From assembly GCF_057098645.1 (NCBI RefSeq), contig NZ_CM169472.1: a DNA stretch of 64,000 nucleotides. One strand, given 5' to 3'. Shown in pieces: positions 8,075-55,582 of the stretch (position 1 is its first letter; each line of letters starts with the position of its first letter). A program made the position numbers and the translations under genes. The notes under the pieces are model-generated. The model was not told the DNA's origin. It ran no database searches and was given only the letters and a program-made list of their open reading frames with translations.

Positions 8075-8078
8075 TTAG
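8075..8078. repeat. Target-site duplication TTAG (right copy)
   Basis: See left copy at 6875-6878. Confidence 0.7.
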
Positions 8079-24408: not shown

Positions 24409-24414
24409 AAATTA

Positions 24415-24681: not shown

Positions 24682-24694
24682 GTGAACTCTCCTG

Positions 24695-34936: not shown

Positions 34937-34959
34937 CCTGATAGCCTCTGGCTATCAGG
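34937..34959. terminator. Hairpin between convergent zntA and the small minus-strand ORF (possible bidirectional terminator)
   Basis: CCTGATAGC-CTCTG-GCTATCAGG perfect 9 bp stem; U-tract is weak on both strands. Confidence 0.35.
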
Positions 34960-34960
34960 G

Positions 34961-35278
34961 TTAGTGCTGGGCCGGGAACGGTGGCATGGTCAGGAAAGTG
35001 TAATATAGCGCTAACATCAGAATGACGGAGATAACACAACATGTAGCAACCAGGCGGGACGTGAATGATGGCCTTTTGAACATCAACCACAGGGCATAAG
35101 CAAGCCCGACGCCGTTAAGTAAAGGTAAAAAAATCATTAGCCAGAGCCAACCACAGGCAAGTACCCCCAGCCATCCCCCCACGGCGATTAAAACAGGCAT
35201 CAGCCAATTGGGGGCGAACATCGCGAACAATCCCAGCAATCCCAGCAATCCCAGGCAAACAGGAATTAAATAATCCAT
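34961..35278 (-). CDS. Hypothetical small membrane protein (105 aa) with an internal 3x9-bp tandem repeat
   Basis: Three predicted TM segments; repeat CAATCCCAG x3 (plus strand 35223-35249) encodes LGLLGLLGL; weak SD. Confidence 0.35.
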   Translation of the reverse strand: MDYLIPVCLGLLGLLGLFAMFAPNWLMPVLIAVGGWLGVLACGWLWLMIFLPLLNGVGLAYALWLMFKRPSFTSRLVATCCVISVILMLALYYTFLTMPPFPAQH

Positions 35279-35298
35279 TTGTGTATTCCATTACACTT

Positions 35299-35337
35299 GC
35301 TTGCCGGATGCGGCGTGAACGCCTTATCCGTCCTACG
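35299..35337. repeat. REP element
   Basis: GCCGGATGCGGCGTGAACGCCTTATCCGTCCTAC matches the REP consensus; a second palindrome CCCCTCGCCCCTCAGGGGAGAGGG lies at about 35376-35400. Confidence 0.5.
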
Positions 35338-35422
35338 TACCGGTTTCAAGCAGCAACATTGAGTGCGATCGGTCCCCTCGCCCCTCAGGGGAGAGGGTTA
35401 GGGTAACAGTCCGTGATCCACC

Positions 35423-39585: not shown

Positions 39586-39604
39586 TAGCACCTCCTGAAC
39601 AGGC

Positions 39605-39645
39605 AATGGCCACCGTTTATCTAACAGTGGCCATTTGATTTGAGG
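39605..39645 (+). terminator. Putative terminator after yhhT
   Basis: Perfect 9 bp inverted repeat AATGGCCAC / GTGGCCATT followed by TTGATTTG. Confidence 0.4.
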
Positions 39646-39964
39646 AAATGATGAAACATTATTCAGAAAATTAATTTAAAAAAACCATTCCTTAAGTCAA
39701 ATATATATAAACGCCGAATAGCGATTAAATCCTTCTCAAAGAATGCACTGATAACATTGTGTTATTTTTATTGCCTCATTTTTCTCACTCACTTATAGTT
39801 GGTCCCTGCTGGCAGTAATTTAGTCATTTCAGAGATTTTTACTCTGATGTGCACTTACTGACTTATCTCACAAGTAATTTTTTCTCTAAATAAAGAATAG
39901 TGATGCCAGCAATTACAGTTAAAACTTGCTTTACTCGTAAAAACAATACTTTAATGGGGTTCTA

Positions 39965-40354
39965 ATGAGACATTACATGAAATGGTTTGCGGCTATTGCT
40001 GTTGTGGGTGCTTTAGCGGGTTGCGCGCGTACTGCGCCAATTGTTCAGGTTCACTCAACCGTCAGCGCTGGTCATACCCAGGAACAAGTGAAAAAAGCGA
40101 TTCTGAAAGCTGGCGTTGAACGCAAATGGATTATGTCCGAAGCCGGACAAGGCATAATTAAAGCACGTCAACAGTCACGCGATCATTCAGCGGAAATACG
40201 CATTAACTACACGGCATCCAGCTACGATATCAATTATGAAAATAGCCAGAACCTACAAGCGTCAGGCGGACAAATTCATAAAAACTACAATCGCTGGGTC
40301 CGCAATCTCGACAAAGATATTCAACTGAATTTGTCAGCGGGCGCAGATTTATAA
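39965..40354 (+). CDS. Small lipoprotein, first gene of the APE-like cluster
   Basis: 129 aa; signal peptide with lipobox (VVGALAGCA); preceded by about 380 bp of AT-rich leader. Confidence 0.55.
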   Translation: MRHYMKWFAAIAVVGALAGCARTAPIVQVHSTVSAGHTQEQVKKAILKAGVERKWIMSEAGQGIIKARQQSRDHSAEIRINYTASSYDINYENSQNLQASGGQIHKNYNRWVRNLDKDIQLNLSAGADL

Positions 40355-40413
40355 TTCTTCCTAAAGTCGGGCCGTTGCGGTCCGATAATAATTTAATTCC
40401 CTCTTAACAGGTT

Positions 40414-41481
40414 GTGCCCAACATGTACGAACAGGATTCTCTTAGCGCACTGGATGCGATTACCGAAGCTCAACGCATTGCCTTTGCCCCTATGCTTTTT
40501 CAAACAGCACTCTGCCTACGTAATGCGGGTGTACTTTCATATCTGGATCGGCAAGGCAAACATGGCGCAACGCTGGCTGATATCACCGAACATAGCCATA
40601 TCAACGAATATGCTGCCAGCGTTCTGTTAGATATGGGCTTAAGCGGGCGAATTATTACCTGTAAAGAGGGAATTTATTACCTGGCGAAAATCGGTCATTA
40701 CCTCCTGCATGACACTATGACTCGCGTGAATATGGATTTCACCCAGGATGTCTGTTACCAGGGGCTCTTCTTCCTCGCCGATTCACTCAATGAAGGAAAA
40801 CCTTCCGGGTTAAAAGTATTTGGCGACTGGTCGACGATATATCCGGCACTTTCGCAATTACCAGACGCCGCTCGTGAAAGCTGGTTTGCGTTTGATCATT
40901 ACTATTCAGATGGCGCATTTAACGCCGCACTGCCTTATGTATTCGCCAACAACCCCACAACATTGTACGATGTAGGCGGCAATACGGGTAAGTGGGCTTT
41001 GCGTTGCTGCAAATACAATGAAAACATCGCCGTGACGTTATTAGATCTGCCACAACAAATCGTACTAGCGAAAGAAAATATCGCGAATGCAGGTTTTTCT
41101 GATCGCATAGATTTCCATGCGGTGGATATGCTAAGCGATGCCCCATTACCGGGCGAGGCTGATATCTGGTGGATGAGCCAATTTTTAGACTGTTTTTCAC
41201 CCGAACAAATAATTAGCATACTCAGCAAAATCGCCAGCGTAATGAAGCCTGGCGCAAAAGTTTGCATCATGGAGTTGTTCTGGGATGCGCAGCGGTTTGA
41301 AGCAGCATCATTTAGCCTGAACGCGTCCTCACTTTATTTTACCTGCATGGCAAACGGTAACAGCCGTTTCTATAGTGCAGAGAAATTTTACGACTATCTG
41401 AATAAAGCAGGATTCCAGGTAGCAGAGCGCCACGATAATTTAGGCGTTGGGCATACACTTTTGATATGCCAAAAGAAATAA
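40414..41481 (+). CDS. Class I SAM-dependent O-methyltransferase
   Basis: 355 aa; N-terminal dimerisation-like region and Rossmann fold DVGGNTGKWA; track start is GTG 40414, an ATG lies at 40423. Confidence 0.7.
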   Translation: MPNMYEQDSLSALDAITEAQRIAFAPMLFQTALCLRNAGVLSYLDRQGKHGATLADITEHSHINEYAASVLLDMGLSGRIITCKEGIYYLAKIGHYLLHDTMTRVNMDFTQDVCYQGLFFLADSLNEGKPSGLKVFGDWSTIYPALSQLPDAARESWFAFDHYYSDGAFNAALPYVFANNPTTLYDVGGNTGKWALRCCKYNENIAVTLLDLPQQIVLAKENIANAGFSDRIDFHAVDMLSDAPLPGEADIWWMSQFLDCFSPEQIISILSKIASVMKPGAKVCIMELFWDAQRFEAASFSLNASSLYFTCMANGNSRFYSAEKFYDYLNKAGFQVAERHDNLGVGHTLLICQKK

Positions 41482-41521
41482 TCGTCACTTAATAATTTTG
41501 GTTTACCGCGGGCGCGCGTTG

Positions 41522-42244
41522 ATGAAATTTACATTAAATATTACCGACTGGCAGGCACTGGCGCCTGGACTTAGCGAAGCGCAGCAATGGCAAGCATGGT
41601 CGCGCCAGCCGTGGGCGATTGACCCTGCCGCGCCGTTGGCAAAATTAAGTGAACTGCCAATGATGACCGCCCGCCGCCTCAGTTCAGGCAGCAAACTGGC
41701 TGTTGAATGCGGTCTGGCAATGCTACGCCGCCATCAGCCAGACGCCGTTTTGTATACCAGTCGTCATGGCGAACTGGAGCGCAATTACCGCATTGTTCAT
41801 GCACTGGCAACCGAACAGGCGCTTTCTCCGACCGACTTTGCACTTTCAGTACACAACTCTTCCGTGGGTAACCTGACCATTGCGGCCAAACAGCCGATCG
41901 TTTCGTCATCGCTTTCTGCTGGTCGCGACACTTTCCAGCAAGGTTTGTGTGAAGTGCTTAGCCTGTTACAAGCGGGATACCAGCGCGTGCTGATGGTCGA
42001 TTTTGACGGTTTCCTGCCCGAGTTTTATCACCCACAACTGCCATCAGAAATGCCGACCTGGCCGTACGCCGTCGCGCTGGTGATTGAAGCTGGCGATGAC
42101 TGGCAATGTGAAACGCAGTCAGCCATTGCGGGCAATGAAACAACACTGCCGCAAAGCATGTTGTTTTTACAGCACTATTTACAAAATGTAGACACATTTT
42201 CACTGCCTGGCGAGCGCGTGCAATGGCGCTGGAGCCACAGATGA
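41522..42244 (+). CDS. Ketosynthase-like protein lacking the active-site Cys (chain-length-factor-like partner)
   Basis: ORF track 41498..42244; start moved to ATG giving MKFTLNITDWQ; thiolase-fold-like N-terminal half, no Cys-His-His triad. Confidence 0.6.
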   Translation: MKFTLNITDWQALAPGLSEAQQWQAWSRQPWAIDPAAPLAKLSELPMMTARRLSSGSKLAVECGLAMLRRHQPDAVLYTSRHGELERNYRIVHALATEQALSPTDFALSVHNSSVGNLTIAAKQPIVSSSLSAGRDTFQQGLCEVLSLLQAGYQRVLMVDFDGFLPEFYHPQLPSEMPTWPYAVALVIEAGDDWQCETQSAIAGNETTLPQSMLFLQHYLQNVDTFSLPGERVQWRWSHR

Positions 42245-43062
42245 GTAAGCTGATGTCACGTCTGGAGTGGACCTGGCGACTGGTCATGACCGGGTTATGT
42301 TTTGCCCTGTTTGGTCTCGGCGGCCTGCTGCTTTCTGTCGTGTGGTTTAACATATTGTTAGTTTTGGTGTGGGATACTTCCCGCCGCCGTCGTTTGGCGC
42401 GTCGCAGCATTGCCGCCAGTTTTCGCCTGTTTTTAACTGTCGCGAAAGGGCTTGGCGTGCTGGATTATCGTATTGATGGCGCTGAAATTTTACGTCAGGA
42501 ACGCGGTTGCCTCGTCGTAGCCAATCATCCCACGCTGATCGATTACGTGCTGCTGGCGTCAGTCATGCCAGAAACTGACTGCCTGGTGAAAAGCGCGCTG
42601 TTAAAAAATCCTTTTCTTGGCGGCGTCGTGCGGGCGGCAGATTATTTAATCAACAGCGAAGCTGAAACCCTGTTACCCCGCTGCCAACAGCGACTGGCAC
42701 AGGGTGACACTATCCTGATTTTCCCCGAAGGCACGCGAACGAAGCCCGGTGAAAAAATGACGCTGCAGCGCGGGGCGGCGAATATTGCCGTGCGCTGTGC
42801 CAGCGATTTACGCATCGTGACGATCGGCTGTAGCGAGCATCTGCTGGATAAACAAAGTAAATGGTATGACGTTCCACCTGACCGGCCGTTTTTTACGGTT
42901 GCAGTCCATGGTCGGGTTGAAATCAATAAATTTTACGATGCAACTTCACAAGAACCGGCGCTGGCAGCAAGGCAGTTAAACCGGCATCTTTTGCTTCAAT
43001 TACAACAAGGTTGTTTACCTCTCTCAGGAATAAATAATGCAAGCGCTTTATCTGGAAATTAA
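42241..43062 (+). CDS. Lysophospholipid (1-acyl-glycerol-3-phosphate-type) acyltransferase
   Basis: HX4D motif NHPTLID and FPEGTR motif; ATG overlaps previous stop (ATGA). Confidence 0.75.
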   Translation: MSKLMSRLEWTWRLVMTGLCFALFGLGGLLLSVVWFNILLVLVWDTSRRRRLARRSIAASFRLFLTVAKGLGVLDYRIDGAEILRQERGCLVVANHPTLIDYVLLASVMPETDCLVKSALLKNPFLGGVVRAADYLINSEAETLLPRCQQRLAQGDTILIFPEGTRTKPGEKMTLQRGAANIAVRCASDLRIVTIGCSEHLLDKQSKWYDVPPDRPFFTVAVHGRVEINKFYDATSQEPALAARQLNRHLLLQLQQGCLPLSGINNASALSGN

Positions 43063-43294
43063 AAACCTCATCATCAGCACCCTCAATCTGGACGAGTTGA
43101 CGCCTGATGATATCGATACCGACGCGCCGCTGTTTGGCGACGGTTTAGGGCTGGACTCTATCGATGCCCTGGAACTGGGACTGGCAGTAAAAAATGAGTA
43201 CGGCATCGTGCTCTCTGCGGAAAGCGAAGAGATGCGTCAGCACTTTTTCTCCGTCGCCACTCTGGCCTCTTTCATTGCTGCGCAACGTGCCTGA
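43037..43294 (+). CDS. Acyl carrier protein 1
   Basis: 85 aa; phosphopantetheine attachment motif GLDSIDALEL. Confidence 0.8.
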   Translation: MQALYLEIKNLIISTLNLDELTPDDIDTDAPLFGDGLGLDSIDALELGLAVKNEYGIVLSAESEEMRQHFFSVATLASFIAAQRA

Positions 43295-43305
43295 GGAAAG
43301 CCATC

Positions 43306-43557
43306 ATGACAGAACAACAAACCGTCTATCAGGAAGTCTCAGCCCTGCTGGTTAAGCTGTTTGAAATCGATCCGCAGGACATCAAACCTGAAGCGCGCCT
43401 GTACGAAGATCTGGAACTGGACAGCATCGACGCCGTTGACATGATTGTGCACCTGCAAAAGAAAACCGGTAAGAAAATCAAGCCGGAAGAGTTTAAAGCC
43501 GTGCGTACAGTCCAGGATGTCGTCGAGGCTGTAGAACGCCTGCTACAAGAAGCCTGA
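43306..43557 (+). CDS. Acyl carrier protein 2
   Basis: 83 aa; motif LELDSIDAVDM. Confidence 0.8.
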   Translation: MTEQQTVYQEVSALLVKLFEIDPQDIKPEARLYEDLELDSIDAVDMIVHLQKKTGKKIKPEEFKAVRTVQDVVEAVERLLQEA

Positions 43558-43561
43558 TCTG

Positions 43562-44143
43562 ATGTCGGGCATTCGCTCGCTACCGATGATTAAGCTGCTG
43601 ACTGGATTATTGCTGCTCGCCTGGCCGTTTGTGATTTGGTTTGGCTTAGCGCATAACGGCCTGCACTGGCTGTTACCGCTAATGGCGTTGCTGCTTTTGT
43701 TGCGTCTGCGCCAGACCCGTCGCCAGGCGGGGCCTTTACAAGCCGTCACGCAACTCGTCGCTGTCGTGGGCATCGCATTATGTGTCGCCAGCTTTATGTT
43801 GAAAACGCACCAGCTACTGCTGTTTTACCCGGTAGTGGTTAACGCGGTCATGCTGGCGGTTTTTGGCGGTTCGCTGTGGTCGGCAATGCCGATAGTTGAG
43901 CGGCTGGCGCGGTTGCAGGAGCCAGACCTCCCGGAAAAGGGCGTGCGCTATACCCGCCACGTCACGCAAATCTGGTGCGGCTTTTTCATCATTAACGGTG
44001 GAATTGCCCTCTTTACCGCGCTTTATGCCGATATGTCGTTATGGACCGCCTGGAACGGCATGATTGCTTATTTGTTGATGGGGACGTTAATGGCTGGTGA
44101 ATGGCTGCTGCGCCGTCAGGTGATGAAAAGAGATCGCGCATGA
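43562..44143 (+). CDS. Polytopic membrane protein of unknown function
   Basis: 193 aa with several hydrophobic helices; conserved position after the ACP pair. Confidence 0.55.
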   Translation: MSGIRSLPMIKLLTGLLLLAWPFVIWFGLAHNGLHWLLPLMALLLLLRLRQTRRQAGPLQAVTQLVAVVGIALCVASFMLKTHQLLLFYPVVVNAVMLAVFGGSLWSAMPIVERLARLQEPDLPEKGVRYTRHVTQIWCGFFIINGGIALFTALYADMSLWTAWNGMIAYLLMGTLMAGEWLLRRQVMKRDRA

Positions 44144-45501
44144 AGCAGACCTTACCGCTTGCACGCTGGCTGACTGCGCCACGCCCTGATGACACACCCA
44201 TTGCGTGGCTGGACGAAAGCTTCTGGACGCTGGGCGATTTGCGTCACGATGTCGCGCAACTTATCTGCCGCTTGCAGCAACAGCCGGGTGAACGCTGGGC
44301 GCTGTGCTTTGAGAACAGCTATCTGTTTATCGTTGCCCTGCTCGCCACGCTACACGCCGGAAAAACGCCGGTGCTTCCGGGGCATAACCGTGTTATCCAG
44401 CTTAACGAGCAACGTGAACTTTTTGATGGTGTGCTTAGCGACAGCGAACTTAACTGGCAAGGTTCATTGCTGTTGGTAGCAAGTTCTCCACAAATCGCGA
44501 CACAATCCTTCACCTTTTCCGCTATAGCGCCAGAGGCTTTTATCGAGCTGTTTACCTCTGGTTCCACGGGACAGCCGAAGCGGGTGATTAAACCTGTTCA
44601 TTTGCTGGACCGTGAAGCAGAACTGCTGGCTGAACGATTAGGCGCACGTCTGGCGGGTTGTCGTGTCGTCGGTTCCGTATTGCCGCAGCATTTGTACGGC
44701 CTGACTTTTCGCGTTTTCCTGCCAATGGCGCTGGGATTACCCCTACATGCCGCCATGCTCTGGTATGTCGAACAGTTTGCCGCGTTGAGTCATCAGCATC
44801 GCTATATCTTCATCAGCAGCCCGGCATTTTTGAAGCGTCTGGATACACAGATTTCCCCGCCCCCCGTTCAGGTGCTTCTCTCTGCTGGCGGTGAGCTACC
44901 GTGGCAGGACGTACAACACACCGCGAACTGGCTGCGCGTCTGGCCTGATGAAATCTACGGCAGCACGGAAACCGGCGTCATTGCCTGGCGTTACCGCGAT
45001 CAGGAGCAACGCCGCTGGCAGCCCTTCCCCGGTATGCAGTTCCGGGCCGAAGGGAATGCATTTCGTCTCTTTTCCCCGCTGATGACGGAAGATAACGGCC
45101 TGTTACTCGACGATATCTTACAGTTTAGCGAAGATGGTCAGTTCCATCTGATGGGGCGTCGCGGACGCATCGTTAAGATTGAAGAAAAACGTATTTCGTT
45201 GCAGGAAGTGGAACAACGTCTGCTGGCACTGGACGGTATTCGCGAGGCGGCGGCAGTTCCTGTTACGCGCGGCGGGCGTCAGAGCATAGGCGTTTTGCTG
45301 GTGCTGGATGACGAAGCTCGTCTGCAATGGCAGAACGGCGGCGGGCATAGCCAGGAAATGACCTGGCGGCGATTACTACGCCCGACGCTGGAGCCTGTTG
45401 CCATTCCGCGTTACTGGCGCGTTATTGATGAAATGCCAGTAAACAGTATGAACAAGCGTGTCTATGCGCAATTACAGGAGTTATTTCATGAAGCCCCATG
45501 A
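44140..45501 (+). CDS. AMP-dependent synthetase/ligase (acyl/aryl-adenylating enzyme)
   Basis: AMP-binding motif TSGSTGQPK; ATG 44140 overlaps previous stop (ATGA). Confidence 0.8.
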   Translation: MKQTLPLARWLTAPRPDDTPIAWLDESFWTLGDLRHDVAQLICRLQQQPGERWALCFENSYLFIVALLATLHAGKTPVLPGHNRVIQLNEQRELFDGVLSDSELNWQGSLLLVASSPQIATQSFTFSAIAPEAFIELFTSGSTGQPKRVIKPVHLLDREAELLAERLGARLAGCRVVGSVLPQHLYGLTFRVFLPMALGLPLHAAMLWYVEQFAALSHQHRYIFISSPAFLKRLDTQISPPPVQVLLSAGGELPWQDVQHTANWLRVWPDEIYGSTETGVIAWRYRDQEQRRWQPFPGMQFRAEGNAFRLFSPLMTEDNGLLLDDILQFSEDGQFHLMGRRGRIVKIEEKRISLQEVEQRLLALDGIREAAAVPVTRGGRQSIGVLLVLDDEARLQWQNGGGHSQEMTWRRLLRPTLEPVAIPRYWRVIDEMPVNSMNKRVYAQLQELFHEAP

Positions 45502-45841
45502 AATCGAGCGCCATCAGGCACAAGCGAATCACCTTGAGATTGTTTTGCATCTCAGGGCAGATCTGTTCTGGTTTCGCGGCCATTTTGCCGTGCAACCATT
45601 ACTCCCTGGCGTGGCACAAATCGACTGGGCAATGAGTTACGCGCTTGCCCTGCTCGCGCCTGGCTGGCGTTTTCACTCCATTCAGAACATAAAATTTCAG
45701 TCTCCGTTGCTGCCGGAAAACCGCGTCACGCTCACGCTTAACTGGCAGGAAGATCGCCAGATTCTGAGCTTTAGCTATCAGCGTCACGACGGTGACGCCC
45801 GCCACACCGCCAGTAGCGGGAAGATCCGCCTATGTCGGTAA
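45488..45841 (+). CDS. Hotdog-fold 3-hydroxyacyl-ACP dehydratase-like protein
   Basis: 117 aa from ATG 45488 (MKPHEIERHQ...); overlaps the ligase stop. Confidence 0.5.
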   Translation: MKPHEIERHQAQANHLEIVLHLRADLFWFRGHFAVQPLLPGVAQIDWAMSYALALLAPGWRFHSIQNIKFQSPLLPENRVTLTLNWQEDRQILSFSYQRHDGDARHTASSGKIRLCR

Positions 45842-47508
45842 ACTTTTCGCCCTGCGTGTTGATCCCCTGCTACAACCACGGCGCGATGATGCCGGGCGTG
45901 CTGGCGCGTCTTAAGCCATTTAATCTGCCCTGTATTGTGGTGGACGACGGCAGCGATGCCGCCACGCAACAGCAACTGGACAGTCTGCTTGCCGAGCAGC
46001 CTGGCGTGACTTTAATTCGCCTGGCAGAAAACGCAGGCAAAGGCGCGGCGGTGATGTACGGCTTACAGGCGGCGAAAGACGCGGGCTTCAGCCATGCGGT
46101 GCAGGTGGATGCTGACGGTCAACATGCGATTGAAGATATCCCCAAACTGCTGGCAGTCGCTGAACAACACCCTGCGGCGCTGATCTCCGGCCAGCCAATT
46201 TACGATGACTCCATCCCCCGCTCACGGCTTTACGGGCGCTGGGTCACCCACGTCTGGGTATGGATCGAAACGCTCTCCCTGCAACTGAAAGACAGCATGT
46301 GCGGTTTTCGCGTTTATCCGGTTGCGCCGACGCTGCAACTGGCAAAACACGCCACCATCGGCAAGCGGATGGATTTCGACACTGAAGTGATGGTGCGCCT
46401 CTACTGGCAGGGAAACACCAGCTATTTCGTGCCGACCCGCGTCACCTATCCACTGGACGGGCTTTCACATTTTGATGCCCTGAAAGATAACGTCCGCATC
46501 TCGCTCATGCACACGCGTCTGTTTTTCGGCATGTTGCCGCGTATTCCTTCACTGCTGATGCGCCGCTCTTCCAGCCACTGGGCGCGGCAGAGTGAAGTGA
46601 AAGGATTATGGGGAATGCGCCTGATGCTGCTGGTCTGGCGTCTGCTGGGAAGAACGGCGTTTAGCGCGCTGCTTTACCCGGTGGTGGGCGTCTACTGGCT
46701 CACTGCTTCTCGTGCGCGCAAAGCGTCGCAAGACTGGCTCGCCCGTGTACGACAGCATCAACCACAGGCGGCAAAACTCAACAGCTATCAGCACTTTCTA
46801 CGTTTCGGTAATGCCATGCTCGACAAAATCGCCAGCTGGCGCGGCGAGCTACAACTGGGGCGTGATGTGCTGTTTGCGCCAGGCGCAGAAGCGGCGCTTG
46901 ACGTCCGCGATCCGCGCGGCAAATTGCTGCTGGCCTCGCATCTTGGCGATGTGGAAGTGTGCCGGGCGCTGGCAAAAATTCAGGGCTACAAAACCATTAA
47001 CGCGCTGGTGTTTAGCGAAAACGCCCAACGCTTTAAACAGATAATGCAGGAGATGGCCCCGCAGGCTGGTATCAACCTGATGCCGGTAACAGATATCGGC
47101 CCGGAAACCGCCATCCTGCTAAAAGATAAGCTGGATAACGGCGAATGGGTGGCGATTGTCGGCGACCGCATCGCCGTCAACCCGCAACGCGGCGGCGACT
47201 GGCGCGTCTGCTGGAGTCCGTTTATGGGCCAGCCTGCGCCTTTCCCACAGGGGCCATTTATTCTCGCGTCTATTTTGCGCTGCCCGGTGAATCTGATTTT
47301 CGCCCTACGCCAGCACGGCAAGCTGCATATTCACTGCGAAACCTTTGCCGACCCGCTGCTGTTGCCGCGTGGCGAACGCCAACAGGCGCTGCAAAACGCT
47401 ATCGACCACTACGCCGCGCGTCTGGAACATTACGCGCTCCAGTCGCCCCTCGACTGGTTTAATTTTTTCGATTTCTGGCAACTGCCGGAAATTCAGGACA
47501 AGGAGTAA
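45832..47508 (+). CDS. Fusion protein: family-2 glycosyltransferase N-domain plus lipid-A-type (LpxL/HtrB-like) acyltransferase C-domain
   Basis: 558 aa; N-terminus CVLIPCYNHG...VVDDGSDA (GT2 signature); C-terminal half resembles lauroyl/myristoyl acyltransferases. Confidence 0.65.
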   Translation: MSVNFSPCVLIPCYNHGAMMPGVLARLKPFNLPCIVVDDGSDAATQQQLDSLLAEQPGVTLIRLAENAGKGAAVMYGLQAAKDAGFSHAVQVDADGQHAIEDIPKLLAVAEQHPAALISGQPIYDDSIPRSRLYGRWVTHVWVWIETLSLQLKDSMCGFRVYPVAPTLQLAKHATIGKRMDFDTEVMVRLYWQGNTSYFVPTRVTYPLDGLSHFDALKDNVRISLMHTRLFFGMLPRIPSLLMRRSSSHWARQSEVKGLWGMRLMLLVWRLLGRTAFSALLYPVVGVYWLTASRARKASQDWLARVRQHQPQAAKLNSYQHFLRFGNAMLDKIASWRGELQLGRDVLFAPGAEAALDVRDPRGKLLLASHLGDVEVCRALAKIQGYKTINALVFSENAQRFKQIMQEMAPQAGINLMPVTDIGPETAILLKDKLDNGEWVAIVGDRIAVNPQRGGDWRVCWSPFMGQPAPFPQGPFILASILRCPVNLIFALRQHGKLHIHCETFADPLLLPRGERQQALQNAIDHYAARLEHYALQSPLDWFNFFDFWQLPEIQDKE

Positions 47509-47511
47509 AGG

Positions 47512-47934
47512 GTGCTTAACGATCCCCGATTTACCGCTGAAGTCGAGCTGACCATTCCCTTTCACGACGTCGATATGATGGGCGTGGCCTGGCACGGTAA
47601 CTATTTTCGCTACTTTGAAGTGGCCCGCGAGGCGCTGCTCAACCAGTTCAATTACGGCTATCGGCAGATGAAAGAGTCCGGTTATTTGTGGCCAGTGGTC
47701 GATGCGCGGGTGAAATATCGCCACGCCCTCACCTTTGAGCAACGCATCCGCGTGCGTGCGCATATCGAAGAGTTCGAAAACCGTCTGCGGATTGGCTATC
47801 AGATTTTCGATGCCGAAACGGGCAAACGCGCCACCACCGGATACACCATTCAGGTCGCGGTCGACGAGCAAAGTCGCGAACTGTGCTTTGTCAGCCCCGA
47901 TATTCTGTTTGAACGCATGGGAGTCAAATCATGA
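47512..47934 (+). CDS. Hotdog-fold acyl-CoA/ACP thioesterase (4HBT/YbgC-like)
   Basis: 140 aa; motif HDVDMMGVAWHGNYFRYFE. Confidence 0.7.
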   Translation: MLNDPRFTAEVELTIPFHDVDMMGVAWHGNYFRYFEVAREALLNQFNYGYRQMKESGYLWPVVDARVKYRHALTFEQRIRVRAHIEEFENRLRIGYQIFDAETGKRATTGYTIQVAVDEQSRELCFVSPDILFERMGVKS

Positions 47935-48536
47935 AATTTTTACCGCTGCTGGCGCTGCTGATTAGCCCGTTTGTGAGCGCCCTGAGCCTGGACGATCTTC
48001 AGCAACGCTTTACCGAACAGCCGGTGATCCGCGCCCATTTCGATCAAACCCGGACGATTAAAGATCTGCCGCAGCCGCTGCGATCTCAGGGCCAGATGTT
48101 GATCACCCGCGACCAGGGGCTGTTGTGGGATCAAACCTCACCGTTCCCCATGCAACTATTACTGGACGATAAACGCATGGCGCAGGTGATCAACGGTCAG
48201 CCGCCGCAAATCATCACGGCAGAAAATAACCCGCAGATGTTCCAGTTTAACCACCTGCTGCGCGCGCTGTTCCAGGCCGATCGCAAAGTGCTGGAACAAA
48301 ACTTCCGCGTCGAATTTGCCGACAAAGGCGAAGGCCGCTGGACGCTGCGCCTGACGCCGACCACCACGCCACTGGATAAAATTTTCAACACCATCGATCT
48401 CGCCGGGCAAACCTATCTGGAGAGCATTCAGCTTAATGATAAACAGGGCGATCGCACCGATATTGCTCTTACCCAACATCAACTGACACCAGCGCAACTG
48501 ACCGATGACGAACGCCAACGTTTTGCCGCCCAGTAA
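47931..48536 (+). CDS. LolA-like outer-membrane lipoprotein carrier protein
   Basis: 201 aa; signal peptide MKFLPLLALLISPFVSA; size and pattern of LolA/LolB-fold proteins. Confidence 0.55.
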   Translation: MKFLPLLALLISPFVSALSLDDLQQRFTEQPVIRAHFDQTRTIKDLPQPLRSQGQMLITRDQGLLWDQTSPFPMQLLLDDKRMAQVINGQPPQIITAENNPQMFQFNHLLRALFQADRKVLEQNFRVEFADKGEGRWTLRLTPTTTPLDKIFNTIDLAGQTYLESIQLNDKQGDRTDIALTQHQLTPAQLTDDERQRFAAQ

Positions 48537-50823
48537 ACGCCCCGCGCTGTTATGGGGGCTAGTCTGCCTGGTCATGGCGGCGGCGTTGCTGATCCTGCTG
48601 CCGCAATCACGGCTGAACAGTAGCGTGCTGGCTATGTTACCCAAACAGGCGATGGGCGATATTCCCCCAGCGCTGAATGACGGCTTTATGCAGCGTCTGG
48701 ACCGCCAACTGGTGTGGCTGGTCAGCCCCGGTAAAGAGGCTAATCCCAGGGTCGCTCAGGAGTGGCTGACGCAGCTGCAAAAATCCGCTGCGCTTGGCGA
48801 CATTAAAGGGCCAATGGATGCCGCCAGCCAGCAGGCGTGGGGAGCGTTTTTCTGGCAGCACCGCAACGGCCTGATTGACCACGACACCCGCGCCCGCCTG
48901 CAAAACGGCGGCGAAGCGCAGGCGCAGTGGATCCTCTCCCAGCTTTATTCTGCATTCTCCGGGGTAAGCGGCAAGGAGCTGCAAAACGATCCGCTGATGT
49001 TAATGCGCGGCTCGCAGCTGGCGATGGCAAAAAATGGCCAGCGTTTGCGGCTGATGGACGGCTGGCTGGTGACGCAGGATCCCCAGGGCAACTACTGGTA
49101 TCTGCTGCACGGCGAACTGGCGGGATCGTCGTTTGATATGCAGCAAACCCACCAGCTCATCACGACCCTGAATACGCTGGAAAAGGATCTGAAAACGCGT
49201 TACCCACAGGCGCAGTTGCTCTCGCGCGGCACGGTATTTTACAGCGATTACGCCAGTCAACAGGCGAAGCAGGATATCTCAACCCTGGGCGTGGCAACGC
49301 TGCTGGGGGTGATATTGCTGATTGTGGCGGTGTTCCGCTCTTTGCGTCCGTTGCTGCTTTGCATGATTTCCATCGGCATCGGCGCGCTGGCGGGAACGGT
49401 CGCCACATTGTTGATTTTCGGTGAATTACACCTGATGACGCTGGTGATGAGCATGAGCGTTATCGGCATTTCCGCTGACTACACACTCTATTATCTCACC
49501 GAGCGGATGGTGCACGGCAACGACGTTTCGCCGTGGCAAAGCCTGGCGAAAGTACGCAATGCCTTGCTACTGGCGCTGCTCACCACCGTGGCGGCATATC
49601 TGATTATGATGCTCGCCCCCTTCCCCGGTATCCGCCAGATGGCGATTTTTGCCGCCATCGGGTTGAGCGCCTCTTGTCTGACCGTCCTGTTCTGGCATCC
49701 GTGGCTGTGCCGTGGCCTGCCGGTGCGCCCGGTTCCGGCGATGGCGCTGATGCTACGCTGGCTGGCAGCGTGGCGGCGCAATAAAAAACTGTCGCTGGGT
49801 CTGCCCGTCGCGCTGGCGCTGTTTTCGCTGGCGGGGATGTCAATGCTGCGCGTCGATGACGATATCTCGCAGTTACAGGCGCTGCCGCAGCATATTCTGG
49901 CGCAGGAGAAAGCCATTACCGCCCTGACCGGACAAAGCGTCGATCAAAAATGGTTTGTAGTTTACGGCGACTTCCCACAGCAAACATTGCGGCGGCTGGA
50001 GACATTTACCACCTCACTGGAGAAAGCGAAAAAAGACGGCCTTATCAGCAACTACCGCACCATTCCGCTGAACTCCCTGGCGCGGCAGGAGGAAGATTTA
50101 GACCTGCTGAAAACGGCGGCCCCGACAGTAACAAAAGCGCTGCAAAATGCCGGGCTGACGGCAGTGAACCCGGATCTCAACGCCATGCCAGTGAACGTTG
50201 ATGAATGGCTGGCAAGCCCCGCCAGTGAAGGCTGGCGTCTGCTGTGGCTGACGCTGGAAAACGGCGAAAGCGGCGTACTGGTGCCGGTTGAAGGGGTTAA
50301 AAGTAGCGCGTTGATGCAGGAAATCGCCACATATTACCCTTGCGGCATTGCCTGGGTTGATCGCAAAAGCACCTTTGATGAATTGTTCGCACTTTACCGC
50401 TACGTCTTAACCGGCTTGTTGCTGGTGGCGCTGGCAGTGATTGCCTGCGGCGCAGTGGCCCGTCTCGGCTGGCGCAAAGGGCTTATCAGCCTGGTGCCTT
50501 CGGTGCTTTCGCTGGGCTGTGGTCTGGCGGTGCTGGCGATGAGCGGGCAGGCGGTGAATCTCTTTTCGCTGCTGGCGCTGGTGCTGGTGCTTGGCATCGG
50601 TATCAACTACACGCTGTTTTTCAGTAATCCGCGCGGTACACCGTTAACTTCGCTACTGGCGATCGCGCTGGCAATGCTCACCACCTTGCTGACGCTGGGA
50701 ATGTTGGTATTCAGCGCCACCCAGGCCATCAGCAGTTTTGGCATTGTGCTGGTGAGCGGTATTTTCACCGCCTTCCTGCTTTCGCCGCTGGCTATGCCCG
50801 ATAAAAAGAGAACAAAAAAATGA
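48505..50823 (+). CDS. MMPL/RND-superfamily exporter
   Basis: 772 aa; two blocks of TM helices separated by soluble loops; exact start uncertain (overlaps previous gene by 32 nt). Confidence 0.7.
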   Translation: MTNANVLPPSKRPALLWGLVCLVMAAALLILLPQSRLNSSVLAMLPKQAMGDIPPALNDGFMQRLDRQLVWLVSPGKEANPRVAQEWLTQLQKSAALGDIKGPMDAASQQAWGAFFWQHRNGLIDHDTRARLQNGGEAQAQWILSQLYSAFSGVSGKELQNDPLMLMRGSQLAMAKNGQRLRLMDGWLVTQDPQGNYWYLLHGELAGSSFDMQQTHQLITTLNTLEKDLKTRYPQAQLLSRGTVFYSDYASQQAKQDISTLGVATLLGVILLIVAVFRSLRPLLLCMISIGIGALAGTVATLLIFGELHLMTLVMSMSVIGISADYTLYYLTERMVHGNDVSPWQSLAKVRNALLLALLTTVAAYLIMMLAPFPGIRQMAIFAAIGLSASCLTVLFWHPWLCRGLPVRPVPAMALMLRWLAAWRRNKKLSLGLPVALALFSLAGMSMLRVDDDISQLQALPQHILAQEKAITALTGQSVDQKWFVVYGDFPQQTLRRLETFTTSLEKAKKDGLISNYRTIPLNSLARQEEDLDLLKTAAPTVTKALQNAGLTAVNPDLNAMPVNVDEWLASPASEGWRLLWLTLENGESGVLVPVEGVKSSALMQEIATYYPCGIAWVDRKSTFDELFALYRYVLTGLLLVALAVIACGAVARLGWRKGLISLVPSVLSLGCGLAVLAMSGQAVNLFSLLALVLVLGIGINYTLFFSNPRGTPLTSLLAIALAMLTTLLTLGMLVFSATQAISSFGIVLVSGIFTAFLLSPLAMPDKKRTKK

Positions 50824-51404
50824 TCAAACCCACATTCTGGCGAGCGTTTGCCCTGACCGCTACGCTTATCCTCACCGGCTGTAGCCACTCGCAACCAGAA
50901 CAGGAAGGCCGCCCGCAAGCGTGGCTGCAACCTGGCTCGCGCATCACGCTGCCTGCGCCGGGGATTTCACCCGCCGTCAATTCCCAGCAACTGTTGACCG
51001 GCAGCTTCAACGGCAACACCCAGTCGCTGCTAGTGATGCTTAACGCCGACGACCAGAAAATCACCCTTGCCGGACTGTCGTCGGTCGGCATTCGCCTGTT
51101 TCTGGTGACCTACGATGCGCAAGGGCTACGCGCCGAGCAATCCATCGTCGTCCCACAGTTACCGCCCGCAAGTCAGGTACTGGCTGACGTGATGCTCAGC
51201 CACTGGCCGATTAGCGCCTGGCAACCGCAACTTCCCGCAGGATGGACACTTCGCGACAACGGTGACAAACGCGAGCTGCGTAACGCCAGCGGCAAACTGG
51301 TCACGGAAATAACCTATCTGAATCGCAAGGGCAAACGCGTGCCAATCAGCATTGAGCAGCATGTCTTTAAATACCACATCACCATTCAATACTTAGGTGA
51401 CTGA
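50820..51404 (+). CDS. Lipoprotein of unknown function (DUF3261-like)
   Basis: 194 aa; lipobox LTGCSHS. Confidence 0.55.
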   Translation: MIKPTFWRAFALTATLILTGCSHSQPEQEGRPQAWLQPGSRITLPAPGISPAVNSQQLLTGSFNGNTQSLLVMLNADDQKITLAGLSSVGIRLFLVTYDAQGLRAEQSIVVPQLPPASQVLADVMLSHWPISAWQPQLPAGWTLRDNGDKRELRNASGKLVTEITYLNRKGKRVPISIEQHVFKYHITIQYLGD

Positions 51405-51405
51405 T

Positions 51406-52575
51406 ATGATTTATATTTCCGCCGTCGGCATGATCAACGCCCTGGGAAATAACCTTGACGATATCGCAGCCAACCTGACTCGCGGTGTCGCCCCCGGAAT
51501 GCGCCCACGCGCAGGCTGGTTGCAGGGGCATCCGCAGGCGGTCCTGGCTGGCGTGGATGGCGAGCTTCCGCTTATCCCGGAAAAATTCGCTGCGCATCGC
51601 TCGCGCAACAATCAGATCCTGCTGGCGGCGCTGGCGCAGCTCCAGCCGCAGGTTGATGACGCTATCGCGAAATATGGTCGCCAGCGCATCGCGATTGTAC
51701 TTGGCACCAGCACCTCCGGCCTGCATGAAGGCGACACGCACGTTAACCTGCGCACCCACGGGCAGCCGAGCACCACATGGCACTACGCGCAACAGGAACT
51801 CGGCGATCCGTCGCGTTTTCTCAGCCACTGGCTGGCGCTCGACGGCCCGGCCTATACCCTTTCAACCGCCTGCTCTTCCAGCGCCAGAGCGATAATCAGC
51901 GGGCGCAGGCTTATCGAAGCGGGGCTGGTCGATGCCGCCATTGTGGGTGGCGCAGACACCCTGAGCCGGATGCCGATTAACGGTTTTCACAGCCTCGAAT
52001 CGCTGTCGCCAACCTTATGTCAGCCGTTTGGTCGTGACCGCGCAGGTATCACCATTGGTGAAGGGGCGGGGCTAATGCTGCTGACCCGGGAACCGCAGCC
52101 CATCGCGTTGCTGGGCGTTGGTGAATCGAGCGACGCTTACCATATTTCAGCCCCGCATCCGCAGGGCGAAGGAGCGATCCGCGCTATTAATCAGGCGCTG
52201 ACCGATGCGCAGCTTACGCCAGATGACGTCGGCTATATCAACCTGCACGGCACCGCCACACAACTCAACGATCAGATTGAATCAATGGTGGTTAACGCCC
52301 TGTTTGGCGAACGCGTACCGTGCAGCTCCACCAAACATTTGACCGGACACACGCTGGGCGCAGCGGGCATTACCGAGGCGGCAATTAGTATGTTGATTTT
52401 ACAGCGTGATTTACCGCTGCCCGCTCAGGACTTCAGCCTGTCGCCGCGCGATCCCACGCTGCCACCGTGTGGCATTATCGAAAAACCGCAGCCGCTGGCA
52501 CGTCCGGTGATCCTGTCCAATTCCTTCGCCTTTGGCGGCAATAACGCCAGCATTCTGCTCGGGAGGGTTTCGTGA
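51406..52575 (+). CDS. Beta-ketoacyl-ACP synthase (active KS)
   Basis: ORF track 51397..52575; start moved to ATG giving MIYISAVGMINALGN; active-site Cys in TACSSS, His motifs HGTATQ and GHTLGAAG. Confidence 0.8.
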   Translation: MIYISAVGMINALGNNLDDIAANLTRGVAPGMRPRAGWLQGHPQAVLAGVDGELPLIPEKFAAHRSRNNQILLAALAQLQPQVDDAIAKYGRQRIAIVLGTSTSGLHEGDTHVNLRTHGQPSTTWHYAQQELGDPSRFLSHWLALDGPAYTLSTACSSSARAIISGRRLIEAGLVDAAIVGGADTLSRMPINGFHSLESLSPTLCQPFGRDRAGITIGEGAGLMLLTREPQPIALLGVGESSDAYHISAPHPQGEGAIRAINQALTDAQLTPDDVGYINLHGTATQLNDQIESMVVNALFGERVPCSSTKHLTGHTLGAAGITEAAISMLILQRDLPLPAQDFSLSPRDPTLPPCGIIEKPQPLARPVILSNSFAFGGNNASILLGRVS

Positions 52576-53036
52576 GCCACTATTTATCCCCCGGCGCTTA
52601 TCTGCCCCACGACGCGCCCATGTTACTGCTGGAAGACGTGGTGAGCGTCAGCGATGACAGCGCGGTGTGCCGCGTAACGGTCTCGCCCAGCGGCGTACTG
52701 GCACCGTTCCTCGACCCGGACGGCAATCTACCCGGCTGGTTTGCCCTTGAACTGATGGCGCAAACCGTCGGTGTCTGGTCTGGCTGGCATCGCCGCCAGC
52801 AGGGCAAAAACAGTATTGAGTTAGGGATGATACTGGGCGCGCGTGAATTGCTTTGCACCACTGGCATTCTGCCCGCAGGCCAGACGCTGACCATTACCGT
52901 CAAACTGCTGATGCAAGACGATCGCTTCGGCAGTTTTGAGTGCAGCATCAACGACGGCGAGGCGACGGGCCGCATTAACACCTTCCAGCCGACCGCGGAA
53001 GAACTTACCACCCTGTTTCAACAAGGAGCGTCCTGA
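52572..53036 (+). CDS. Hotdog-fold dehydratase
   Basis: 154 aa; GTG start overlapping the KS stop. Confidence 0.55.
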   Translation: MSHYLSPGAYLPHDAPMLLLEDVVSVSDDSAVCRVTVSPSGVLAPFLDPDGNLPGWFALELMAQTVGVWSGWHRRQQGKNSIELGMILGARELLCTTGILPAGQTLTITVKLLMQDDRFGSFECSINDGEATGRINTFQPTAEELTTLFQQGAS

Positions 53037-53767
53037 TGAGTCGTTCAGTTCTGGTTACTGGTGCCAGCAAAGGCATTGGTCGCGCCATCGCCTGCCAACT
53101 GGCGGCAGACGGCTTTAACATTGGCGTTCACTATCACCGTGACGCCACAGGCGCTCAGGAAACGCTGAATGCCATTGTCGCCAACGGGGGTAACGGGCGT
53201 TTGCTCAGTTTCGACGTCGCAAACCGCGAACAGTGTCGGGAAGTGCTGGAGCATGAGATCGCGCAACACGGTGCCTGGTACGGCGTGGTCAGTAACGCCG
53301 GGATCGCCCGCGATGCCGCTTTTCCGGCTTTAAGCGATGACGACTGGGATGCGGTGATCCACACCAACCTCGACAGTTTCTACAACGTCATTCAGCCGTG
53401 CATTATGCCGATGATCGGCGCACGCCAGGGTGGGCGCATCATCACGCTATCCTCGGTTTCCGGCGTAATGGGCAATCGCGGCCAGGTGAATTACAGCGCT
53501 GCCAAAGCCGGAATTATCGGCGCAACAAAAGCGCTGGCTATCGAACTCGCGAAGCGCAAAATCACCGTCAACTGCATCGCGCCGGGGCTTATTGATACCG
53601 GGATGATCGAAATGGAAGAGAGCGCTCTGAAAGAGGCAATGTCGATGATCCCCATGAAACGTATGGGCCAGGCGGAAGAAGTTGCCGGGCTTGCCAGTTA
53701 TTTAATGTCTGATATTGCGGGTTACGTCACCCGCCAGGTTATTTCCATCAACGGAGGGATGTTATGA
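53036..53767 (+). CDS. 3-oxoacyl-ACP reductase (FabG-like SDR)
   Basis: TGASKGIGRAIA Rossmann motif and YSAAKAG catalytic motif. Confidence 0.85.
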   Translation: MSRSVLVTGASKGIGRAIACQLAADGFNIGVHYHRDATGAQETLNAIVANGGNGRLLSFDVANREQCREVLEHEIAQHGAWYGVVSNAGIARDAAFPALSDDDWDAVIHTNLDSFYNVIQPCIMPMIGARQGGRIITLSSVSGVMGNRGQVNYSAAKAGIIGATKALAIELAKRKITVNCIAPGLIDTGMIEMEESALKEAMSMIPMKRMGQAEEVAGLASYLMSDIAGYVTRQVISINGGML

Positions 53768-54993
53768 CACGTCGCGTAGTGATTACAGGAATGGGCGGCG
53801 TGACTGCCTTTGGTGAAAACTGGCAGGACGTTTCTGCACGCTTACTGGCGTATGAAAATGCGGTGCGCAAAATGCCGGAGTGGCAGGTCTACGATGGCCT
53901 GCACACCCTGCTTGGCGCGCCTGTTGATGATTTCACGCTACCGGAGCACTACACCCGCAAGCGTATCCGTGCGATGGGCCGCGTGTCGCAAATGTCGACC
54001 CGTGCCAGCGAGCTGGCGTTAGAGCAGGCAGGGTTGATTGGCGATCCGATATTAACCAGCGGCGAAACGGGCATTGCGTACGGTTCATCGACCGGCAGTA
54101 CCGGCCCGGTAAGCGAGTTCGCCACCATGCTGACGGAAAAGCACACCAATAACATCACTGGCACCACCTATGTGCAGATGATGCCGCACACCACCGCCGT
54201 TAATACTGGCCTCTTTTTCGGCCTGCGCGGGCGGGTGATCCCAACCTCCAGCGCCTGTACTTCCGGCAGCCAGGCAATCGGTTATGCGTGGGAAGCCATT
54301 CGCCACGGTTATCAAACGGTGATGGTTGCTGGTGGTGCCGAAGAGTTATGTCCTTCAGAAGCAGCGGTATTTGATACGCTTTTCGCCACCAGCCAGCACA
54401 ATGATGCGCCGAAAACCACACCTTCACCGTTCGATGAAAACCGCGACGGGCTGGTGATTGGTGAAGGCGCAGGTACGCTCATTCTCGAAGAACTGGAGCA
54501 CGCCAAAGCGCGCGGCGCGACCATTTACGGTGAAATCGTCGGCTTTGCGACGAACTGCGACGCGGCACATATTACCCAGCCGCAGCGCGAAACCATGCAG
54601 TATTGTATGGAGCAATCGCTGAAAATCGCCGGGTTAAGCGCACAAGATATCGGCTATATTTCAGCGCATGGTACGGCGACCGATCGCGGTGATATGGCAG
54701 AAAGTCTGGCGACAGCAACCATTTACGGTGATAATGTGCCGCTCTCCTCGCTGAAAAGTTATTTTGGTCATACGCTTGGTGCCTGTGGCGCGCTCGAAGC
54801 CTGGATGAGTCTGCAAATGATGCGCGAAGGTTGGTTTGCGCCTACGCTAAACCTGAATAAACCAGACCCGAATTGTGGCGCGCTGGATTACATCATGCAT
54901 GAAGCCCGCAAGGTTGATTGTGAGTTTTTGCAGAGTAACAACTTTGCCTTTGGCGGCATTAATACATCCATCATCATTAAACGTTGGCCCTGA
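53764..54993 (+). CDS. Beta-ketoacyl-ACP synthase II-like (FabF-like)
   Basis: 409 aa; Cys in SSACTSGS, His motifs HGTATD and GHTLGACGA. Confidence 0.85.
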   Translation: MTRRVVITGMGGVTAFGENWQDVSARLLAYENAVRKMPEWQVYDGLHTLLGAPVDDFTLPEHYTRKRIRAMGRVSQMSTRASELALEQAGLIGDPILTSGETGIAYGSSTGSTGPVSEFATMLTEKHTNNITGTTYVQMMPHTTAVNTGLFFGLRGRVIPTSSACTSGSQAIGYAWEAIRHGYQTVMVAGGAEELCPSEAAVFDTLFATSQHNDAPKTTPSPFDENRDGLVIGEGAGTLILEELEHAKARGATIYGEIVGFATNCDAAHITQPQRETMQYCMEQSLKIAGLSAQDIGYISAHGTATDRGDMAESLATATIYGDNVPLSSLKSYFGHTLGACGALEAWMSLQMMREGWFAPTLNLNKPDPNCGALDYIMHEARKVDCEFLQSNNFAFGGINTSIIIKRWP

Positions 54994-54994
54994 T

Positions 54995-55582
54995 ATGTAT
55001 CGGATAGTTCTGGGGAAAGTTTCGACCTTAAGCGCAGCTCCACTGCCACCGGGTTTACGCGAGCAAGCACCGCAAGGTCCACGACGCGAACGCTGGCTGG
55101 CGGGGCGTGCATTGCTTTCGCACACGCTTTCCCCGCTACCGGAGATCATCTATGGCGAACAAGGCAAACCTGCATTTGCGCCGGAAACGCCGCTATGGTT
55201 CAACTTAAGCCATAGCGGTGACGATATCGCTCTGCTGTTGAGTGATGAAGGCGAAGTCGGCTGCGATATCGAAGTGATTCGCCCGCGCGCCAACTGGCGC
55301 TGGCTGGCGAACGCCGTATTCAGCCTCGGGGAACACGCTGAGATGGACGCCGTGCATCCTGATCAGCAACTGGAAATGTTCTGGCGCATCTGGACGCGCA
55401 AAGAAGCCATCGTTAAACAGCGTGGTGGCAGCGCCTGGCAAATCGTCAGCGTAGACAGCACCTATCACTCCTCGCTGTCAGTCAGCCATTGTCAGCTAGA
55501 AAATTTAAGCCTGGCGATCTGCACCCCCACCCCCTTTACGCTCACCGCCGACAGTGTGCAATGGATCGATTCAGTTAACTGA
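54995..55582 (+). CDS. acpT: 4'-phosphopantetheinyl transferase (holo-ACP synthase AcpT)
   Basis: ORF track 54875..55582; start moved to MYRIVLGKVSTLSAAPLPPGL; PPTase motifs (FNLSHSGD, WTRKEAIVK). Confidence 0.85.
   Translation: MYRIVLGKVSTLSAAPLPPGLREQAPQGPRRERWLAGRALLSHTLSPLPEIIYGEQGKPAFAPETPLWFNLSHSGDDIALLLSDEGEVGCDIEVIRPRANWRWLANAVFSLGEHAEMDAVHPDQQLEMFWRIWTRKEAIVKQRGGSAWQIVSVDSTYHSSLSVSHCQLENLSLAICTPTPFTLTADSVQWIDSVN

Follow-up and report, generated by a model that had tools for sequence, protein, structure and literature searches.

An aryl polyene operon ending at acpT in an Escherichia coli chromosome of the O145:H28 type, and its relation to the K-12 and CFT073 arrangements

We analysed a 64,000-nucleotide stretch of DNA (contig NZ_CM169472.1 of NCBI RefSeq assembly GCF_057098645.1; the whole stretch is called the window below), in which 18 consecutive genes on the plus strand occupy positions 39965-54993 between yhhT and acpT. 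With high confidence, this region is O-island 138, the aryl polyene (APE) operon apeA-apeR found in lineage I of enterohaemorrhagic Escherichia coli (EHEC), located at its native chromosomal site and with acpT as a translationally coupled 19th gene. The cluster, its membership in the APE family, its position beside acpT and the relationship between AcpT and the acyl carrier proteins (ACPs) have all been published before. What is added here is that the K-12 arrangement appears to be a deletion with a recognisable apeR remnant, common to about 89% of complete E. coli genomes, and that throughout Enterobacteriaceae acpT seems to belong to the operon as a 19th gene. The finding that the EHEC allele is mosaic when compared with the CFT073 reference cluster is modestly new.

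The gene content is real and not a chance pattern. The open reading frame (ORF) listing and the RefSeq annotation of NZ_CP007136.1, a record 100% identical to the window, concur on the 18 genes between yhhT and acpT, with the last stop at 54993 in both and the start of the first gene at 39965 in the ORF listing and 39977 in RefSeq. The intergenic gaps range from -32 to +68 nucleotides, with overlaps at 11 of the 17 junctions, and the genes are followed by acpT and then nikA. A tightly packed same-strand operon of 18 genes between yhhT and acpT had been proposed from the letters and ORFs alone (hereafter the sequence-only reading), and both annotations bear this out. Genomes of E. coli O145:H28, among them RM12581 and RM13514, match the window at 100% identity over 17.5 kb, and the apeO-apeR segment (51406-54993) is about 99% identical at the nucleotide level to O157:H7 genomes.

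Family membership was judged against the core gene set of APE biosynthetic gene clusters (BGCs) as used by Grammbitter et al. 2020. The core features found here are two ketosynthases with a catalytic triad, the chain-length factor ApeC, two ACPs, the dehydratase pair ApeI/ApeP, the ketoreductase ApeQ and the exporter ApeM with its LolA-like and DUF3261 partners. The sequence-only reading had made its assignment depend on significant similarity to APE cluster proteins, and such similarity was obtained with the structures 6QSP and 6QSR and with the Pfam families ApeI-like and ApeP-like. These matches also bear on the possibility that the interval holds ordinary paralogues of fatty acid synthesis enzymes that make neither a pigment nor a special lipid. 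Single enzymes of the cluster do match the FabF, FabG and FabZ families, but the best matches are to the APE-specific structures and families, a chain-length factor, an adenylating enzyme of the aryl-acid type, a methyltransferase and a dedicated export set are present in the same cluster, and the near-identical cluster of CFT073, which is the experimentally characterised APE producer of E. coli, gives pigment when it is expressed heterologously in a K-12 host. We therefore give the paralogue explanation practically no weight.

The gene acpT (54995-55582, plus strand) encodes a 4'-phosphopantetheinyl transferase of the Sfp type (NF007676, 396 bits) and begins 1 nucleotide past the apeR stop codon. 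To place this arrangement in context, 80 loci around ApeR homologues in other Enterobacterales (Citrobacter, Klebsiella, Enterobacter, Raoultella, Kosakonia and others) were compared. An AcpT homologue was found in 61 of the 80, and in 60 of these 61 it begins 1-3 nucleotides past the apeR stop; Escherichia sp. E1V33 has the identical gene order apeR-acpT-nikA. Judged by its position, acpT can be regarded as functionally gene 19 of the operon, and AcpT is predicted to be the cognate phosphopantetheinyl transferase of ApeE and ApeF in this strain, as supported by the 1-nucleotide coupling and the conserved adjacency. De Lay and Cronan (2006), as cited in later work, reported that AcpT modifies both carrier proteins of O157:H7, which are homologues of ApeE and ApeF, in vitro. 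The proposal of the sequence-only reading that AcpT activates the two ACPs thus agrees with the adjacency data as well as with the published work on the O157 homologues.

The same reading stated that K-12 has yhhT beside acpT without the cluster, which is correct: the K-12 spacer between the two genes is 54 nucleotides long. Positions 35-54 of this spacer match window positions 54975-54994 at 20 of 20 nucleotides, and these positions (plus strand) comprise the last 19 nucleotides of apeR, including the stop codon, and the single nucleotide that separates it from acpT. The apeR remnant thus survives upstream of acpT in K-12 and marks the right-hand edge of the deletion. The suggested synteny comparison of the yhhT-acpT interval was carried out on 5426 complete E. 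coli genomes, of which 4856 have the K-12-type junction (at least 98% identity) and the remaining 569 have the cluster at this site. The apeR tail left behind in K-12, together with the conserved adjacency of apeR and acpT, argues that the K-12 state is a deletion. We accordingly favour the reading that the cluster and acpT form an ancestral unit and that most E. coli lineages would have lost a 15.4-kb segment; the title of De Lay and Cronan (2006) agrees with this. The first 34 nucleotides of the K-12 spacer, which bear on the left end-point of the deletion, have no match in the window, in the island of the CFT073 type or in any of the 80 related loci.

The cluster had been described as inserted between yhhT and acpT, and the published name O-island likewise suggests a horizontally acquired element that entered the EHEC lineage at this point. 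The absence of the cluster from K-12 and from 4856 of the 5426 complete genomes would fit such an event, as would the GC content, which is 55.4% for the cluster as compared with 52.8% for the window, and the AT-rich leader. An insertion would not, however, be expected to leave acpT of K-12 still abutted by the last 19 nucleotides of apeR with their stop codon, and it is also opposed by the location of acpT directly behind apeR in nearly all related loci that have an AcpT homologue and by the order shared with Escherichia sp. E1V33. In addition, no integrase, tRNA or direct repeats were annotated on the flanks of the cluster in this window, whereas the CFT073 copy is found in an integrase-bearing island. 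Acquisition as an island is hence very improbable, and it was the direction of the event, from presence to absence, that the word "inserted" had wrong.

The copy in CFT073 (c1204-c1186) has the same 18 genes in the same order, with equal protein lengths except for ApeH (453 amino acids in the window as compared with 452 in CFT073). Its site is an island with an integrase, beside dgcT/pga and without an adjoining acpT, whereas the window copy is at the native yhhT-acpT site. The resemblance in gene combination and order to the APE clusters of CFT073 and Xenorhabdus that had been named in the sequence-only reading therefore holds, given the 6QSP and 6QSR matches and the same order, but the CFT073 copy differs in its locus and, sharply, in four of its proteins. 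For 14 of the 18 proteins the identity between window and CFT073 is 94-99.8%, and the diverged ones are ApeA (64%), ApeG (81%, with the divergence in the 3' part of the gene), ApeH (66%) and ApeI (72%). At the nucleotide level the two copies cannot be aligned from 39586 to about 40000, are about 65-70% identical at 40028-40625 and 91-99% identical at 40626-43925, fall to 55-77% at 43926-45800 (the 3' part of apeG, apeH and apeI) and are again 89-100% identical at 45876-54993. By this alignment the copy in the window has a mosaic structure when set against that of CFT073; no report of the mosaic was found in the literature examined, and a prior description is possible.

Among 824 genomes that carry a cluster, two discrete allele classes were seen, a window-type class of 569 genomes with at least 90% identity and a CFT073-type class of 256 genomes with 60-80%. 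The 4856 genomes with the junction and the 569 with the cluster at the native site account for 5425 of the 5426, and it follows from these counts that in genomes of the CFT073 type the yhhT-acpT interval has the deletion junction of K-12. CFT073 and Nissle 1917 share identical WP accessions for all 18 proteins and have the same island location. In both, ShlB/hemagglutinin pseudogenes adjoin one side of the island copy of the ape genes, and on the other side there are decayed sugar-metabolism genes, remnants of insertion sequences (IS) and, next to dgcT, a tyrosine integrase. The homology of the island copy to the window ends exactly at the apeR stop codon.

The divergence raises the question of whether the alleles of the EHEC and CFT073 types differ in function, either in the starter unit, the processing of the polyene or the regulation. 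The breakpoints of the mosaic are sharp (43926-45800 and the unalignable 39586-40000), ApeH and ApeI are far less conserved than ApeR, which is 99.8% identical, the allele classes are discrete across genomes, and several genes of O-island 138 have been reported to be higher in an rpoS mutant of EDL933. On the other side, ApeH diverges fast between all genera: where the ApeR proteins of two genera are 87-95% identical, their ApeH proteins share only 60-75% identity, and from such comparisons ApeH can be described as fast-evolving in general. Furthermore, of 62 ApeH positions without variation among 66 orthologues, 60 are unchanged in the window, both changes being conservative (L to F and L to I), and ApeI keeps 19 of 19 invariant positions. 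Given that the invariant positions are kept and that ApeH evolves fast everywhere, a change in chemistry between the alleles seems unlikely. A difference in regulation is plausible, since the upstream regions are unrelated. Taken as a whole, a functionally distinct EHEC allele is improbable.

None of the 80 Enterobacterales loci could be recognised as the donor of the diverged block with apeH and apeI, and both alleles are about equally distant from the other genera. Within the native-locus clusters themselves, the segment from the 3' part of apeG through apeH and apeI is at 90-95% identity in 164 genomes and at 95-99% in 378, and apeO-apeR is at 96% or more in nearly all of them; this block may be a hot spot of recombination or diversification. 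A wider conjecture, which we regard as doubtful, is that the species holds two allele types, one at the native yhhT-acpT site and a second that would have been re-acquired on an integrase-bearing island in strains with the deletion junction, and that the block swap changes the choice of starter, the processing of the polyene or the regulation. The two types are nearly identical for most of the operon, but in the promoter/apeA block and the starter-loading block apeG-apeH-apeI they are as different as copies from separate genera. If the block swap is functional, the EHEC pigment lipid would not have the same chemistry or the same expression as the product of CFT073, which underlies current knowledge of APEs in E. 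coli.

The individual proteins were assigned to families by NCBIfam, Pfam and PDB comparisons with the curated NCBIfam cut-offs applied, and a family could be assigned to 16 of the 18, the exceptions being ApeA and ApeG. All genes are on the plus strand. The carbon skeleton would be built by a set of enzymes in which every catalytic component named in the sequence-only reading was recovered. Its two ACPs are apeE (43037-43294), with Ser41 in an LDSID motif (NF006617, 90.8 bits, above cut-off), and apeF (43306-43557), with the serine of the DSI motif at position 40 (NF003757, 146 bits, above cut-off). The two ketosynthases of active type are apeO (51406-52575), the elongating enzyme and partner of ApeC (6QSP chain A, 6e-175; NF006618, 555 bits, above cut-off), and apeR (53764-54993; NF006587, 778 bits, above cut-off), the counterpart of which is the initiation ketosynthase in the Xenorhabdus system; in both, a Cys/His/His triad aligned with Cys163, His303 and His340 of FabF. 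The third, Cys-less ketosynthase-like protein is apeC (41522-42244), a truncated chain-length factor of 240 amino acids (6QSP chain B, 7e-92 over residues 1-238; Pfam Ketoacyl-synt_2, 1e-66), which lacks the C-terminal half and in which no Cys or His aligned with the triad positions of FabF, the alignment being unreliable there.

The FabG-like ketoreductase is apeQ (53036-53767), which is of the FabG2 type (TIGR01831, 476 bits against a cut-off of 339; PDB 4IIU, 1e-154), and the two hotdog dehydratases are the partner subunits apeI (45488-45841; 6QSR chain A, 1e-38; Pfam ApeI-like, 1.7e-39) and apeP (52572-53036; 6QSR chain B, 7e-48; Pfam ApeP-like, 2.4e-41). The adenylating enzyme is apeH (44140-45501), with AMP-binding and 4-coumarate-ligase-like matches at a conserved gene position, and by analogy it is predicted to load an aromatic starter, probably 4-hydroxybenzoate, onto an ACP. 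The thioesterase is the hotdog protein apeK (47512-47934; YbgC/FadM family, 1.3e-16; Pfam 4HBT_2, 1.3e-16) and the lysophospholipid acyltransferase is apeD (42241-43062), which is of the PlsC type (TIGR00530, 3e-15; Pfam Acyltransferase, 2e-19) and the pathway role of which is taken from Xenorhabdus. No ammonia-lyase is present in the cluster, as 16 of the 18 ORFs fit other families and ApeA and ApeG are far too short. The earlier suggestion that the starter is made elsewhere agrees with this and with the published pathway.

One assignment had to be modified. The gene apeB (40423-41481) was read as an O-methyltransferase, and it does encode a methyltransferase dependent on S-adenosylmethionine (94% identity to CFT073; Pfam Methyltransf_2, 1.2e-17; NCBIfam FlxJ-family methyltransferase, 474 bits, below the cut-off of 560), but O-methylation is found only in the name of the Pfam family. 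Deletion of apeB in Xenorhabdus leads to desmethyl products, and since the heads of the known APE products are 4-hydroxy-3-methyl or 3,5-dimethyl phenyl groups the methyl groups are on ring carbons; methylation of the aryl ring is therefore the predicted function.

The predicted export set was found in full. It consists of the LolA-like periplasmic carrier apeL (47931-48536; TIGR00547, 4e-16; flexirubin LolA2, 1e-14; Pfam LolA and LolA_3), the exporter apeM (48505-50823) of the RND/MMPL type (HAE3 and HpnN-like matches; Pfam MMPL) and two lipoproteins. The first of these, apeA (39965-40354), encodes a small protein of 129 amino acids with the lipobox LAGC, and its deletion in the CFT073 cluster leaves the pigment unaffected. 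The second, apeN (50820-51404), is a DUF3261 lipoprotein with the lipobox LTGC that is described as LolB-like (Pfam DUF3261, 6.6e-39). The remaining gene, apeG (43562-44143), encodes a hydrophobic sequence of 193 amino acids, the RefSeq orthologue of which is named "COG4648 family protein" and which the literature terms a COG4648 membrane protein.

The gene apeJ (45832-47508) had been read as a fusion of a GT2 glycosyltransferase and a lipid A-type acyltransferase, and this is supported, for the acyltransferase half at the level of the predicted fold. The N-terminal part (residues about 1-235) matches Pfam GT2 (1.4e-20), the best NCBIfam match is the polyprenyl-phospho-GalNAc synthase PpgS (1.4e-14; GalNAc, N-acetylgalactosamine), and a Foldseek search with the model gave the polyprenyl-phosphate GT2 enzymes GtrB/ArnC (6e-11). 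The C-terminal part (residues about 330-540) had no match in Pfam and PDB sequence searches, and an hhalign comparison of its profile with LpxL of E. coli did not reach significance (probability 0.13%) but did align the HX4E motif. The assignment to PatA/LpxL-type acyltransferases is based on the fold search because these comparisons were negative: Foldseek matched the C-terminal half to the mycobacterial 6-O-acyltransferase PatA (3e-8, TM-score about 0.6), and His370 and Glu375 of the HX4E motif are invariant in the orthologues. According to the model, the two domains are joined by long helices (residues about 257-336) that may span the membrane. A lipid-phosphate GT2 combined with a PatA-like domain would fit the glycerol-phosphate-GalNAc-6-O-APE linkage that has been reported for APE lipids.

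Orthology with the published pathways of CFT073 and Xenorhabdus doucetiae allows the following scheme to be proposed. AcpT would convert apo-ApeE and apo-ApeF to their holo forms, and ApeH would adenylate 4-hydroxybenzoate, supplied by UbiC from primary metabolism, and load it directly onto ApeE without a coenzyme A intermediate. After a first condensation by ApeR, the complex ApeO:ApeC, the ketoreductase ApeQ and the complex ApeI:ApeP would iterate with malonyl units to give a conjugated hexaene, the ring of which would be C-methylated by ApeB. ApeF would probably serve for the assembly of a further conjugated fatty acyl chain, which ApeD would transfer to a lysophospholipid. The GT2 half of ApeJ would place GalNAc onto the lipid phosphate and its PatA-like half would esterify the APE to the sugar, with ApeK assisting release. 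Finally, ApeM, ApeL, ApeN and possibly ApeG would bring the pigment lipid to the outer membrane.

The operon is preceded by an intergenic leader between yhhT and apeA (39586-39964, plus strand) of 379 nucleotides, which is AT-rich with 33% GC, missing in K-12 and not alignable with the CFT073 copy. The leader begins with a stable hairpin (about 39600-39642), which has a folding energy of -17.5 kcal/mol (z = -3.0) and, together with its U-rich tail UUUGAUUUG, is the probable terminator of yhhT. One promoter-like site was noted at 39771-39799 as a consensus match only, of a kind not enriched over shuffled sequences; the scan for promoters and terminators gave no excess over shuffled sequence (13 against 11.2 and 22 against 20.2), and the Rfam scan gave no RNA family in the operon region. 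Long antisense ORFs within the cluster (for example 47305-47871, minus strand) were considered and rejected as artefacts of GC-rich sequence, RefSeq having no annotation there.

Several points count against the identification of the region as a typical APE operon. ApeA and ApeG have no match to any Pfam or NCBIfam family, and the AlphaFold2 model of ApeJ, built from 31 orthologues, is of only moderate confidence (pLDDT 71.7). The starter-loading block differs from the characterised CFT073 allele (ApeH 66%, ApeI 72% and ApeG 81% identical) and the promoter region is unrelated to that of CFT073, so that the identity of the product and its regulation are extrapolated; a cell-bound APE pigment or lipid has been demonstrated for the CFT073 and Xenorhabdus clusters only. 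In laboratory culture, furthermore, APE clusters are reported to have little or no expression.

Reported effects of APE lipids in Gram-negative bacteria are protection from oxidative stress and reactive oxygen species and the promotion of biofilm formation, so that APEs in EHEC O145:H28 and O157:H7 bear on how these bacteria survive on produce and in the host.

Some features elsewhere in the window were also noted. The small RNA RyhB is found at 5193-5257 (minus strand) as a full-length Rfam match (83 bits, E = 3.6e-14) and is the sole Rfam family above threshold in the window. At 7342-9015 (plus strand) a frameshifted pseudogene of tssD (Hcp, the tube protein of type VI secretion) is annotated, followed by yrhA, and the pair looks like an orphan remnant of a type VI secretion system. 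A hypothetical protein of 249 amino acids is annotated at 17381-18130 (minus strand) between ugpB and livF, and the type II toxin-antitoxin pair ataR-ataT, with a GNAT acetyltransferase toxin, at 23890-24690 (minus strand) between panM and livJ. The zntA-tusA spacer (34938-35422) is 485 nucleotides long and holds an annotated ORF for a hypothetical protein of 102 amino acids (34970-35278, minus strand), as compared with about 100 nucleotides and no gene in K-12, which suggests a small strain-variable insertion.

In comparison with known systems, the flexirubin clusters of Bacteroidota and the xanthomonadin cluster of Xanthomonas follow a related type II polyketide synthase logic. The flexirubin models for the FlxJ methyltransferase, the FlxB reductase and LolA2 all scored below their curated cut-offs here. 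Neither a tyrosine ammonia-lyase for the supply of the starter nor DarA/DarB dialkylresorcinol genes were found in the cluster, the sole DarB match having 22 bits against a cut-off of 550, and there was no leftover ORF of a size fitting a XanB2-type chorismatase that makes 3-/4-hydroxybenzoic acid (ApeA has 129 and ApeG 193 amino acids), no XanB2 model having been run. The closest known entity, O-island 138, extends from Z4851 onward in O157:H7 EDL933 and corresponds to S-loop 225 or ECs_4324-ECs_4341 of Sakai. It has the same yhhT-acpT site and the same 18 genes, its segment from the 3' part of apeG to apeI is about 96% identical at the nucleotide level, and as only allelic differences of a few percent separate the two copies, they represent one entity in sister lineages. 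O-island 138 has been reported as fully conserved in O145:H28, and ECs_4324-4341 of O157 Sakai has been called an APE BGC by antiSMASH. The ape cluster of X. doucetiae, from a different genus, has orthologous ApeC, ApeO, ApeI and ApeP, the solved complexes 6QSP and 6QSR being matched at 1e-38 to 6e-175; it has the same gene set apeB-R, its type II polyketide synthase has been reconstituted in vitro and the structure of its APE lipid has been solved.

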